Positions 39,838 through 42,800 of a stretch of DNA of 64,000 nt are shown here, piece after piece. Position 1 is the first letter of the stretch. Each line of letters begins with the position of its first letter. Position numbers: made by a program. Source of the stretch: Alphaproteobacteria bacterium (GTDB lineage Bacteria > Pseudomonadota > Alphaproteobacteria > Paracaedibacterales > CAITNM01); the NCBI GenBank assembly GCA_947487955.1, contig CANKYV010000005.1:940-64939 (forward strand), given 5' to 3'.

Positions 39838-42800
39838 TCATTATGCCAAGTTTGCAAGCTACAAACAATCTGTTAGATTATCAACCTGCAATGCAGCACT
39901 GTAAAAATCTTTTCTATGTTTAGCTTTAGTGATCGTAGTCGTTATCTAAGTATTGTTGGGTGTCTTAGCTTTGCCTCAGGTTTATGCTTTGTTTTATCAG
40001 GCAGTACACTGATTGTATTTTTAAACGATCAAAAGTTAACTCTTGCGCACTCTGGTTTATTTCTTATTGCTCACCTGCCCCATGTATTTAAGTGGGCTGC
40101 CGTTCCTTTTATGGAAAAAATAACCCTTGGAGATTATCGACGTAGGCTATTACAGGTTGGACTTGTCTTTAAAAGTTTAATTTTACTTGGGTTTGCTTTT
40201 TCCCCAAAGCTACCCTTAGTTTGGTTTTTCTTATTGTTATGCCTTCATATTATTAGCGCAGCATATGAATGTATTTTATACGTTTCACAAGTTGTGGGAT
40301 TGAATCGTAATAATTGGGGATTTGGCGAGGCTGCGGGTGTTAGTGGCTATCGATGCGGAATTCTCGCAGGTGGAGCTGGGGCATTATCATTGTCTATTTT
40401 TTATTCATGGCAAGTTATTTATATAATTTATGCTGGAATTATGCTGCTTCCTCTAATACCTCTTTACCTTACTAAAGTAAAGTTTTCTCCTAAAAATCGG
40501 CCTTCCGTTATTGGTTATGTGCATTATCTAAAACAAGCATGGAATAGTTTGAAAAAATCTCAATCAATTTGGTGGCTTTGTGCCATTATGTTTTTTTTTC
40601 GTGCTCAAGATGCAATGCAAGGGCAGTACAACACCATATATTTACTAGAATTAGGCTATGACCGAGGAGTAATTTCATTTGCATACAAGACTTTTGGGTT
40701 ATTTATGGCAACTCTTGGTGGTTTTTCAGCCGCTTGGATGATTCGTCGTAGAGGGCTTTATATACCATTATGGATAGGATTAGTAAGCCATGGTATATCC
40801 ACTGTTTTTTTTATAATGCTAGGAACGTACTCGCCTTCTGTTAGCGGACTATATGTTACTGCCATTATCTATGAATTTACTAAAGGGTTATCAATAACAC
40901 CTTTTCTTTCATTGCAAATAATGAGCTGTACCAAAGCTTATAGCATGATGCAGCTTGCGGGGCTGTCATCTATCGCTGTATTAGCAACAATTTTATTTGG
41001 AGCCCTTGGAGCCCAACTGATTGAACCCCTTGGTTGGACAAACTTCTGGATATTTACGCTTTTTTCCAATATTCCTGCTTTTGTATTGTTATTAAATAAA
41101 CCAATAAAAATATAATATTTATCACAATAAAAAATAAAAAACATTTAAAATTACAATTAACAATAATAAAATATTAATATTTTGTATTTTATAATTATCA
41201 ATTATAATGTTTTAAATGTTGATTGTCATATGCATAATAAAAAAAATGTATTTATTTTATATTTATTTAACATATTTGCTGTAATTACTGCAGCCTCTAG
41301 CAATCAATTTGATGAGACTGTTAGTAACTTGTATTTAGGTCAAGATGAAGGTATTGACTGCGTTGGTCTTCGTGTTCACCTTGGAAACAATAACGACCTT
41401 ATTTATTCGAATCTTTTATGGCATTATCGTATGGGCATAAGGTATTTTGAAATTATTGGGGACGTAACACACGAGCAATCGCAGTTAATTTCGAAATTCC
41501 ATAATCGCGTAGAGGATATTTGTTCATTACGTACTCATACAGAACAATCTCCTGATTTTTTGAGTACTAAATTATGGGTTTTAGAACTTACTGATAGACA
41601 ATTTTTGTGCTTGAAGAAACCATTAACAGAAATTTTAAGTGAAAATGAATCCTCAACATTGGTTTTTCCAGCGTGTCGTTATAGTGGATTTAATCCCGAC
41701 GTTCCAATAAGCTCTTGGCCTCAAACCGACGAGCAGTTAATCTATCGATCACCTATTGATTATCAACATCCCGTTAATTTATTGAACAAAATAAGCCCAA
41801 GTGTTACCCAAACATCCAGTACTGCTCATATAGCGGAGTTTTCAACAATGGAGGATGCTGTGCTTTTTACAAGTGATATGGAGCGGGATCAATTACCGTT
41901 TATGGAAGTGATTAAGCAATCGATTCAACATGCATGCTTAAGAGGAAAAGAATATCAACTCGCGGAATATTTTTCTTTTGATATACCTTCTTTATCGTCT
42001 CCAGCTGCTAAAATTGCAGAATTCATAAATCAATATGGAGCTAATAATAATATTAGATTTTCCCCAAATTATATTTATGTGCCAACTCCAAAATGTGCTT
42101 GGAGTTCAATCTCATTAGCTTTAGGGTCATATGAGGCTGGAAGACGAATAAATTTTCCCGCCTACAAAGAATTCAGCAAAATAATCAATGCAGAAAAATA
42201 CTGCGAAGATCTGGCAGATGAAAGATTCTATAAAATGACCTGTATTCGCCATCCCTATGACAGAATGTTATCGAGCTTTTTAGACAAAATTCAGCCAACT
42301 GGAAAAAATTATTTTAGAGAAAACTTAGGCTTTGCAGAAGATGAGACTGTTTCCTATGCAGAGTTTTTAAGGAGAGTAAAAGCGAAACCAATTAAAGAGC
42401 TTGATGAACACTTCAAGCCAATGTGGGTATTAACTATGCATCCTGTTATTAGATACAATAAAACTATTCGTCTTGATGAATTTTATCAGGATTGGGCGGA
42501 AGTAATGCAGCATATAGGTATCCATGGGACACCTTCTGATTACGATGGCACCTGGCATGCAACACATGCATCTTCTAAAAGAGAATATCTTACAGAAGAA
42601 TGTGCAACGCTACTTGAAGAACTGTGTGAGGAAGATCTTAAAATTTTTGGCTACCCTAAAATTCCAGCATTCAAGAGCTACAAAGAAGTTATGGTAAACT
42701 TATAATATTTTATATTAATATATTATTAATACCTTTTGTATAAATTACTATTAAATAATTTTAATTAATTATACTAATGAAAATTAAAAATTTTTTATTT

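Follow-up and report, generated by a model that had tools for sequence, protein, structure and literature searches.

Where, and from whose supply of activated sulfate, would a bacterium of an endosymbiont lineage sulfate a glycan? The question is raised by a gene in a 64,000-nucleotide stretch of DNA (hereafter, the window) from an Alphaproteobacteria bacterium (GTDB lineage Paracaedibacterales; CAITNM01), which covers positions 940 to 64,939 of the forward strand of contig CANKYV010000005.1 in assembly GCA_947487955.1. The gene is an open reading frame (ORF) on the + strand that runs from an ATG at 41230 to a stop codon at 42705; the upstream TTG at 41182, where the ORF list places the start, would add merely 16 residues, and these are implausible. 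On the evidence of the ORF list and translation, the homologues and an AlphaFold2 model, the 491-aa product is a two-domain protein in which a predicted signal peptide, a domain resembling glycosyltransferases of the GT-A fold, a linker and a Sulfotransfer_2 domain follow one another. An earlier note, made from the sequence alone, had described this protein as a carbohydrate sulfotransferase fused to an unrecognized domain, had placed its motifs for binding 3'-phosphoadenosine-5'-phosphosulfate (PAPS) closer to those of animal enzymes than to bacterial ones, and had suggested a sulfated, fucosylated product. The reading that we favor, with a probability of about 0.5, is that the sulfotransferase is exported and acts beyond the bacterial cytoplasm on a glycan that contains fucose, the PAPS probably being supplied by the host.

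A PAPS-type sulfotransferase domain in a small fusion family

The sulfotransferase domain (aa ~257-481; 41998..42672, +) was delimited with Pfam, the homologues and the model, and its assignment stands. PF03567 matches the protein with an E-value of 1.3e-11 and 45.6 bits against a cut-off of 22, pairing aa 329-476 with profile positions 78-252, and the homologues span almost the entire hidden Markov model (HMM), from positions 9-13 to 252, including the 5'-phosphosulfate-binding (PSB) region. The family is defined by a conserved Lys in the PSB strand-loop-helix and by PXXRXXS in the 3'-phosphate-binding (PB) strand-turn-helix (PMC11625862); both PAPS-binding motifs quoted in the earlier note were found, and they correspond to these two elements. 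The PSB segment, YVPTPKCAWSSI (aa 283-294; 42076..42111, +), contains K288 (nt 42091-42093, in YVPTPKCAWSS), which is invariant in all 23 sequences of the family alignment, and it is modeled as a strand (281-284), a loop and a helix (291-303). The PB segment, IRHPYDRMLSSFLDKI (aa 339-354; 42244..42291, +), reads P342-Y-D-R345-M-L-S348 with R340 just ahead, and it is modeled as a strand (334-339), a turn and a helix (342-354). All 13 close homologues share R340, P342, R345 and S348, which occur in at least 90% of the 23 sequences. H394 (42409..42411, +; in DEHFKPM) is conserved to the same degree, and from this conservation we infer that it is a candidate catalytic base; the base is not a conserved column of PF03567 (PMC11625862). 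Judged from these alignments, the C-terminal domain is a predicted PAPS-type Sulfotransfer_2 domain with all the defining PAPS-binding residues intact.

A search of 5.8 billion clusters yielded 13 homologues with both domains, all of ~500 aa and 33-49% identical to the window protein, plus one copy at 99%. A profile search of 1.84 billion representatives enlarged the fusion family to ~25 clusters, and the protein family is thus small and sharply delimited. The depth of the alignment mattered for the model: with 14 sequences, an earlier AlphaFold model left the N-terminal domain unfolded, with a predicted local distance difference test score (pLDDT) of <50 and insignificant Foldseek matches, and the addition of 10 more-distant family members led to a folded domain. 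The AlphaFold2 model from the 23-sequence alignment has a mean pLDDT of 87 and a predicted template modeling score of 0.83, the sulfotransferase domain lying mostly at 85-96. Within the family, mean pairwise identity is 45% for the N-terminal domain, 40% for the sulfotransferase domain and ~20% for the signal peptide and linkers, a pattern that places both domains under apparent constraint. HMMs of both domains found no second copy of either elsewhere in the window, and a scan for promoters and terminators around the fusion gene returned no more than the shuffled expectation. Cysteines are conserved at seven family positions (aa 98, 127, 149, 236, 289, 338 and 458); two of them, C149 in the N-terminal domain and C338 in the sulfotransferase domain, are jointly lost in P0021, P0022 and P0024. 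This hints at an inter-domain C149-C338 disulfide, which would fit an extracytoplasmic location.

The proposed closeness to animal CHST/HNK-1 enzymes found no support: no animal enzyme was recovered. PDB sequence searches, both with the single protein and with the 23-sequence profile, detected no solved animal sulfotransferase, and the sole match, the unnamed sulfotransferase chain 3rnl, was insignificant (E 0.23). The nearest stand-alone relatives are the 12 matches of a C-domain profile search, all of them unnamed metagenomic PF03567 proteins, and the structural neighbors in a viral library are giant-virus and phage sulfotransferases. The PF03567 match itself is no sign of animal closeness, because this family holds animal enzymes (CHST8-14/HNK-1ST and HS2ST) plus many microbial ones, with algal, viral and bacterial members. 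The window protein shares with the family the above-threshold score, the PSB Lys, the PB PXXRXXS and the predicted sulfotransferase fold. It differs from the animal members in lacking sequence-detectable similarity to the solved ones and in being fused to a GT-A-like domain; furthermore, whereas animal CHST/HNK-1ST are Golgi type II proteins with a ~20-residue anchor and a stem, it begins with what resembles a short bacterial-type signal peptide. Its origin in an alphaproteobacterial endosymbiont lineage also sets it apart from other PF03567 members. The best viral structural match (BFVD A0A5J6VHN7, a 470-aa protein from a Megaviridae environmental sample; E 2.3e-10) extends over 520 aligned columns and apparently covers both domains; giant viruses may, to judge from these predicted structures, encode the same GT-A-plus-sulfotransferase arrangement.

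The GT-A-like N-terminal domain

The first ~280 aa had matched nothing recognizable in the earlier note, and for curated models this remains so: no Pfam family matches the region at E ≤ 1, neither PF13704 nor any other glycosyltransferase, and no NCBIfam model matches the fusion protein. Profiles, however, resolve it into the signal peptide and a degenerate GT-A glycosyltransferase-like domain (aa ~33-237, ~205 aa; 41326..41940, +) related to Glyco_tranf_2_4 (PF13704) and GT92. The N-domain profile gave 60 matches at E ≤ 1e-3 among the 1.84 billion representatives, the top ~15 being family members. PF13704 was present in 39 of the 40 distant matches scanned, some of which also carry GT2 or GT92, and in more distant relatives the domain occurs together with ankyrin repeats, exostosin or RXYLT1 domains. 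Aligned by hhalign with outside PF13704-type sequences, the domain scored a probability of 99.2% (E 2e-19, 171 columns); reciprocally, an HMM built from the outside sequences alone matched the N-domains of all 23 family members, at 19.7-70.8 bits. The Foldseek search that had been proposed as a check placed poplar GalS1, a GT92 galactan synthase, first among PDB entries (E 1.4e-6), followed by SpsA, K4CP, WrtF and LARGE1, all of the GT-A fold. The N-terminal domain is, therefore, a strongly diverged GT-A fold from the Glyco_tranf_2_4/GT92 lineage.

With that lineage, including the beta-1,4-galactan synthase GalS1, the domain shares the fold and the core motifs (D/E)DIIxxNLxWHYxxGxRxFxI and W....F(L)C...PL.EIL. 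It differs in escaping the Pfam model, in lacking DNxSxD and DXD, and in always being followed, in the core family, by a sulfotransferase domain. At the canonical DXD position, which is DADEF in Glyco_tranf_2_4, the window protein has T121-D-R-Q-F125 (41590..41604, +), and both hhalign and hmmsearch align WifpvDADEFlc with WVLELTDRQFLC. R123 and Q124 are invariant in the 23 sequences, and position 122 varies (D/G/S/N). The upstream nucleotide-binding IIDNxSTDxT corresponds to IIGDVTHEQ in the window protein, in the hhalign and HMM alignments alike; the family consensus at the DNxSxD position is EIxHQGLTxSQ, also rendered EI(I/L)..G(L/V)(T/S)..Q, and the QGNH motif is only partly kept, as A(H/Y). 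The closest canonical relative, P0027, retains IMDNMSTDST, IDADEF and QGNH. The N-terminal domain has lost the canonical motifs for nucleotide (DNxSxD) and metal (DXD), and an invariant Arg-Gln replaces the D-E of DADEF.

Most likely, this domain is a constant module that recognizes a glycan or a nucleotide sugar, that is, a pseudo-glycosyltransferase, the motif loss being the sole ground for assigning it a non-catalytic role. Two family members, P0013 and P0015, are ~50% identical to the window protein in the N-terminal domain and 24-29% identical in the sulfotransferase domain, which suggests domain shuffling, with a constant N-domain combined with differing sulfotransferase types. One metagenome-assembled genome (MAG), Gw_Eff_bin_318, carries two fusion paralogues on separate contigs (L003:9992-11548 and L004:9869-11398). 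In the metagenomic protein P0023 (505 aa), a GT90 domain (aa 219-380) is fused ahead of the same GT-A-like domain (aa 399-498; family HMM, E 1.2e-42), and this protein may be a Rosetta-stone-type link between GT90 and the fusion family; it ends shortly past TDRQ, and the gene may alternatively be truncated or frameshifted. Animal NDST, an N-deacetylase/N-sulfotransferase, and streptococcal GtfB, with its pseudo-glycosyltransferase partner domain, offer a comparison by functional analogy alone. As there, a carbohydrate-active-type domain that might prepare or present the acceptor would be the partner, here of a sulfotransferase; it is of the GT-A type, not a deacetylase or GT-B, and there is no sequence relationship.

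Predicted export signals and the island setting

The feature with the greatest consequence for PAPS supply is one that the earlier note overlooked, namely, the export signals on the fusion protein and on all of its island neighbors. By inspection, aa 1-24 (41230..41301, +), composed of MHNKKN, VFILYLFNIFAVITAA and SS, resemble a Sec-type signal peptide: the n-region is basic, the hydrophobic core measures 16 residues, and small residues occupy the predicted cleavage site; a variable acidic linker follows, up to aa ~32. Our export calls are heuristic and combine inspection with a simple hydropathy and charge script; a K/R n-region, a hydrophobic core, small residues at -3/-1 and no further spans were seen in 21 of the 23 family members and in four island neighbors, the remaining two family members being N-terminally truncated fragments. 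The signal segments themselves are unrelated in sequence (~23% identity among members versus 45% for the adjoining domain); their cores comprise 9-16 uncharged residues (21 in one member), with basic residues before and acidic residues after. In the model, the segment forms a lone helix, and the stretch behind it has a pLDDT of <50. Cores of this kind are too short for a membrane span, and the distribution of charges would favor an N-in/C-out orientation with the catalytic domains outside. Because the extension is open and signal-shaped in 21 divergent homologues despite an AT-rich genome, it is probably translated.

The four island neighbors in the window, a 273-aa protein, a GT90 glycosyltransferase, a 1196-aa glycosyltransferase and a 517-aa protein, all possess signal-like N-termini, mostly with A-x-A-type sites (...VGDAA, ...SFA/AN, ...AFA/AL and ...ASA/SD, respectively, a slash marking the predicted cleavage), and so do the island counterparts in sister loci. 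Elsewhere in the window, N-termini of this design were observed in known envelope proteins (MlaA, a beta-barrel OMP, a thioredoxin of the TlpA-like kind and a protein of the beta-lactamase family); enzymes known to be cytoplasmic (enolase, FabI, dCTP deaminase, the DinB-like IMS protein and an RNB protein of the RNase R type) are without one. The fusion protein would accordingly be Sec-exported and its signal peptide cleaved, as would be the case for its island neighbors.

The fixed position and the fast evolution of this island had likewise been overlooked. The relatives among GTDB genomes are MAG contigs labeled Candidatus Finniella inopinata, 'Alphaproteobacteria bacterium' or 'Proteobacteria bacterium', and the proteins flanking the island are 76-96% identical to those on these contigs (enolase 82-88%; AmpG 76-77%, to the same-position genes of L001, L002, L005 and L006; DinB-like 81%; MurA 88%; dCTP deaminase 95%). 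The alphaproteobacterial markers TrcR and ChpT are also found in the window. Identities within the island are far lower: identity to the positional counterparts is 43-49% for the sulfotransferase, 29-35% for the 517-aa protein (L001, L003, L005 and L006) and ~22-24% (L005/L006) for the large glycosyltransferase, whose counterparts in L001, L005 and L006 measure 956-967 aa. This difference from the flanks marks the locus as a fast-evolving island at a fixed site, between enolase/AmpG and the DinB-like gene/RluD, in Finniella-like Holosporales.

The island core consists of the fusion protein, a glycosyltransferase of ~800-1200 aa and a ~500-aa protein of no recognized family. The rest varies: the window has the 273-aa orphan, GT90 and the remains of a group II intron reverse transcriptase, and sister islands have a stand-alone GT10, a GDP-mannose 4,6-dehydratase (Gmd; 439.7 bits, cut-off 415) and a fusion of Fcl with Gmd (493 and 439 bits); Gmd or Fcl+Gmd genes directly adjoin the sulfotransferase gene in two sister islands. 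The GC content of the island is only slightly lower than that of the rest of the window (35.5% versus 37.8%), and its GC content at third codon positions falls in the range of the flanking genes; the island is therefore long-resident, and recent horizontal acquisition was rejected. Assembly chimerism and eukaryotic contamination were rejected as well, because at least seven independent contigs, with alphaproteobacterial housekeeping flanks, repeat this gene order. All characterized Holosporales are host-associated, and the hosts whose cytoplasm Finniella species inhabit are cercozoans and ciliates (PMC11909080); a search for literature linking sulfotransferases with Holosporales or Paracaedibacter found none.

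On the left, the island is bordered by a conserved gene for an AmpG-family MFS permease (39916..41115, +; TIGR00901, E 2.6e-47, below cut-off), which has no obvious part in the system. Immediately after the sulfotransferase gene comes the 273-aa orphan (42777..43598, +), with the signal-like N-terminus MKIKNFLFFIFIVRIFVGDAA; neither Pfam nor NCBIfam matches it, no PDB sequence does so significantly, and L001-L006 lack a counterpart. The degraded group II intron reverse transcriptase/maturase (43734..44638, +) is split into two ORFs in different frames, with RVT_1 and sub-threshold GIIM matches on 44006-44638 and 13 stop codons when read in one frame from 43734, and is a mobile-element scar inside the island. 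The GT90 gene (44883..46067, -; PF05686, E 1.4e-17) encodes a protein whose N-terminus ends in ILALPLMLASISSLSFA/AN. In the 1196-aa multi-glycosyltransferase (46096..49686, -; Pfam and PDB matches), whose signal-like N-terminus ends in FLLILLITKYAFA/AL, the fucosyltransferase-like module reported in the earlier note proved real but weak: this GT10 module (aa ~1017-1100, nt ~46387-46638) scores 27.2 bits with PF00852 against a cut-off of 23.9, with weak matches to the solved alpha1,3-fucosyltransferases 9s6a, 2nzw and 7yro. Farther upstream in the same protein, aa 633-711 are GT2-like (PF00535, weak and below cut-off). The 517-aa protein (49683..51236, -), a core island partner according to translation and synteny, has a signal-like N-terminus ending in NASA/SD and no Pfam, NCBIfam or PDB match; a homologue search returned only itself and one fragment, and an identical copy is present on a metagenome contig.

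The right border is a DinB/UmuC-like gene (51515-52765, +) for an IMS-family polymerase with DUF4113; together with an S24 peptidase (LexA/UmuD-like) gene at 20960-21547 (-), it makes up an SOS-type mutagenesis module next to the hypervariable island. Farther away, the window contains two PF00144 beta-lactamase/PBP-family proteins, one (5064-6656, -) with a signal peptide and a DUF3471 tail and the other at 54094-55485 (-), as well as flagellar genes at 73-2695 (-) (FliM, FliL, a DUF6468 protein and an ORF that matches MgtE_N weakly and below threshold), in a lineage otherwise met solely as intracellular symbionts; several Holosporales retain flagellar genes (PMC11909080). Neither tRNA genes nor Rfam families at the gathering threshold, intron RNA included, were found in the 64 kb.

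PAPS supply and competing explanations

That the window shows no PAPS-synthesis gene, as the earlier note had stated, was borne out by a Pfam scan: ATP sulfurylase, APS kinase, PAPS reductase and CysQ were all missing from the 56 window ORFs of at least 100 aa scanned, a few others of that length, two of which look like DnaJ and LeuRS by their N-termini, lying outside the scan. The suggested link to fucosylation is plausible and has gained in support, because GT10 modules or genes recur beside the sulfotransferase, because Gmd and/or Fcl are encoded in two sister islands, and because of the GT90 fusion P0023. A fucose-containing glycan is thus a plausible product of the pathway, for which the sister-island genes argue better than the weak GT10 module of the window.

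In the scheme that we prefer, the fusion protein and its island neighbors would be exported through Sec and would lose their signal peptides. The exported glycosyltransferases would build or decorate a fucose-containing glycan, and the sulfotransferase domain would move sulfate onto it from PAPS, at the cell surface or within the periplasm. The degenerate GT-A domain, devoid of the usual metal-dependent transfer, would position the acceptor for sulfation. Host cytosolic PAPS (~0.5 kDa) and nucleotide sugars would enter the periplasm through outer-membrane pores, which is the most speculative step. The host is the likely source of PAPS because the bacteria dwell in its cytoplasm and eukaryotes make this small molecule in the cytosol. 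Host ATP and UDP-glucose are taken up through the inner membrane by related intracellular bacteria, which implies that molecules of this kind reach the periplasm.

Several points weigh against this scheme. We know of no established precedent for PAPS- or nucleotide-sugar-dependent enzymes in the bacterial periplasm; a bacterial PAPS pathway may sit elsewhere, our view being 64 kb of the genome; the export heuristic also flagged the cytoplasmic proteins Ugd and MurA; and an in-frame TTG at codon 34 of the fusion gene makes a signal-less start possible in principle. The invariant Arg of the N-terminal domain may, moreover, serve metal-independent catalysis. Further, the sister-island Gmd and Fcl appear to carry hydrophobic N-termini; the scheme is strained by the NADPH that Fcl would require in the periplasm, or else these N-termini may not be export signals at all. 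If the hydrophobic starts are real, the whole pathway would be extracytoplasmic, with NADPH needed at that place; if they are start-codon artefacts, the enzymes would be cytoplasmic, and GDP-fucose or a lipid-linked intermediate would be exported. The two genes concerned are L001:7615-9717 (-), the Fcl+Gmd fusion, and L007:7921-9126 (-), a Gmd with a 59-residue N-terminal extension; their possible N-termini share a hydrophobic VFIFTCI.I.PI.G.D.S ahead of differing enzyme domains, and this segment could stem either from an export signal or from a divergent promoter region that is conserved. We consider it a doubtful extension that Finniella-like endosymbionts run an entire Leloir-type glycan pathway plus a PAPS sulfotransferase outside the cytoplasm, in some genomes with GDP-fucose synthesis included, fed by PAPS and nucleotide sugars from the host cytosol.

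The location of the enzyme set can be read in two other ways. Sulfation could take place at the cytoplasmic face of the envelope, with the N-terminus acting as a membrane tether or reflecting a mis-called start, a lipid-linked lipopolysaccharide or capsule precursor as the substrate, and PAPS made by bacterial CysDN/CysC encoded outside the window, similarly to Mesorhizobium KpsS and Sinorhizobium LpsS. To our knowledge, the characterized PAPS-dependent bacterial carbohydrate sulfotransferases all act in the cytoplasm, and KpsS, NodH, Stf0 and the cyanobacterial synechan sulfotransferases have no signal peptide. These enzymes resemble the window protein in the PAPS-type sulfation of a bacterial glycan, and none has been described with a GT-A-like fusion; KpsS, a fucosyl sulfotransferase, is a precedent for the sulfation of fucose, and NodH and Stf0 belong to other Pfam families, PF13469 and PF00685 (PMC11625862). 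The known periplasmic bacterial sulfotransferases are PAPS-independent aryl sulfotransferases (ASST; PMC13426309); a periplasmic location would be the likeness to these enzymes, which differ in family and donor chemistry, whereas the window protein matches no ASST family in Pfam at E ≤ 1 and has its PAPS motifs intact. A cytoplasmic site would also suit the normally cytoplasmic Gmd/Fcl of the sister islands, the TTG at codon 34 and the limited stretch of genome inspected, as well as two genes at 8159-10373 (-), which overlap by 35 nt and encode a UDP-glucose/GDP-mannose dehydrogenase-family protein (Ugd) and an NAD-dependent epimerase/dehydratase; neither has a signal peptide, and therefore some nucleotide sugars are made in the bacterium's own cytoplasm. 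We nevertheless regard this explanation as unlikely, given that 21 of 23 divergent homologues keep the signal design despite a lack of sequence conservation in it, that the short cores and the positive-inside rule put the catalytic domains outside, that every island neighbor shares the design and the cytoplasmic housekeeping proteins of the window do not, and that no PAPS gene was found among the ORFs scanned. The other possibility is that the enzymes leave the bacterium altogether, by a secretion system or in vesicles, and sulfate and glycosylate host molecules with PAPS and nucleotide sugars taken from the host. Legionella Lgt/SetA and the clostridial toxins are well-established examples of effectors and toxins that glycosylate with UDP-sugars of the host, the lineage is one that dwells in host cytoplasm, and the island diverges far more quickly than the genes beside it, as would be expected of host-interaction genes; the families involved (PF03567, GT90, GT10 and GT92-like) are common in eukaryotes and giant viruses, and the association of distant N-domain relatives with ankyrin repeats, exostosin and RXYLT1 points the same way. 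However, neither a secretion-system gene nor an effector-type signal was seen in the neighborhood of the island, Sec signal peptides lead no further than the periplasm, and a ~1200-aa multi-glycosyltransferase with GDP-fucose genes in sister islands looks more like a glycan-assembly pathway; we hold a secreted effector set to be quite improbable.

The role of the N-terminal domain is a separate issue, and it bears on any location. The GT-A-like domain could be active and metal-independent, with Arg123 in the role of the metal, so that one bifunctional enzyme would add a sugar and then sulfate it. Metal-independent GT-A enzymes that use basic residues exist, GT14 C2GnT-L being the precedent, and in the fusion family the basic residue stands exactly at the second Asp of DXD. 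Moreover, the domain is conserved at least as well as its sulfotransferase partner, its fold is predicted with high confidence, and many of its polar residues are invariant (W64, H65, R71, R93, R123, Q124, Y172, R173 and D167). Against this stand the loss of both DXD and DNxSxD and the partial retention of QGNH (H or Y), the variable residue ahead of Arg-Gln (D, G, S or N), and a more distant GT-A-like/sulfotransferase fusion, P0033, which has NASQ and hence no Arg; the constant N-domain that P0013 and P0015 combine with different sulfotransferase domains also suits a recognition module better. Catalysis by the N-terminal domain is, in our judgment, a tentative prospect, and we prefer to view the domain as a recognition module within an exported sulfotransferase.

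Both domains belong to known superfamilies, and relatives are already auto-annotated as 'sulfotransferase family 2 domain-containing protein'. What is new is that the N-terminal domain is recognized as a GT-A derivative without DXD, that a small fusion family has been delimited, and that this family is set in a hypervariable island of putatively exported glycosyltransferases in protist endosymbionts. Apart from export, these results provide a fold and an ancestry for a formerly unrecognized domain; a glycosyltransferase fold that lacks catalytic motifs and is as conserved as its fused enzyme is, moreover, a candidate for use in sulfotransferase engineering, as a module that recognizes carbohydrates. 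In bacteria, PAPS-dependent sulfation and nucleotide-sugar-dependent glycosylation are considered cytoplasmic, and in eukaryotes they are assigned to the Golgi lumen. If the enzyme set is truly exported, this would explain how genome-reduced symbionts without a PAPS pathway could carry host-like sulfated and fucosylated glycans. An entire pathway run outside the cytoplasm on host donors would constitute a new way to parasitize the activated donors of the host, and a eukaryote-like sulfated, fucosylated and rapidly diversifying coat would then be possible.

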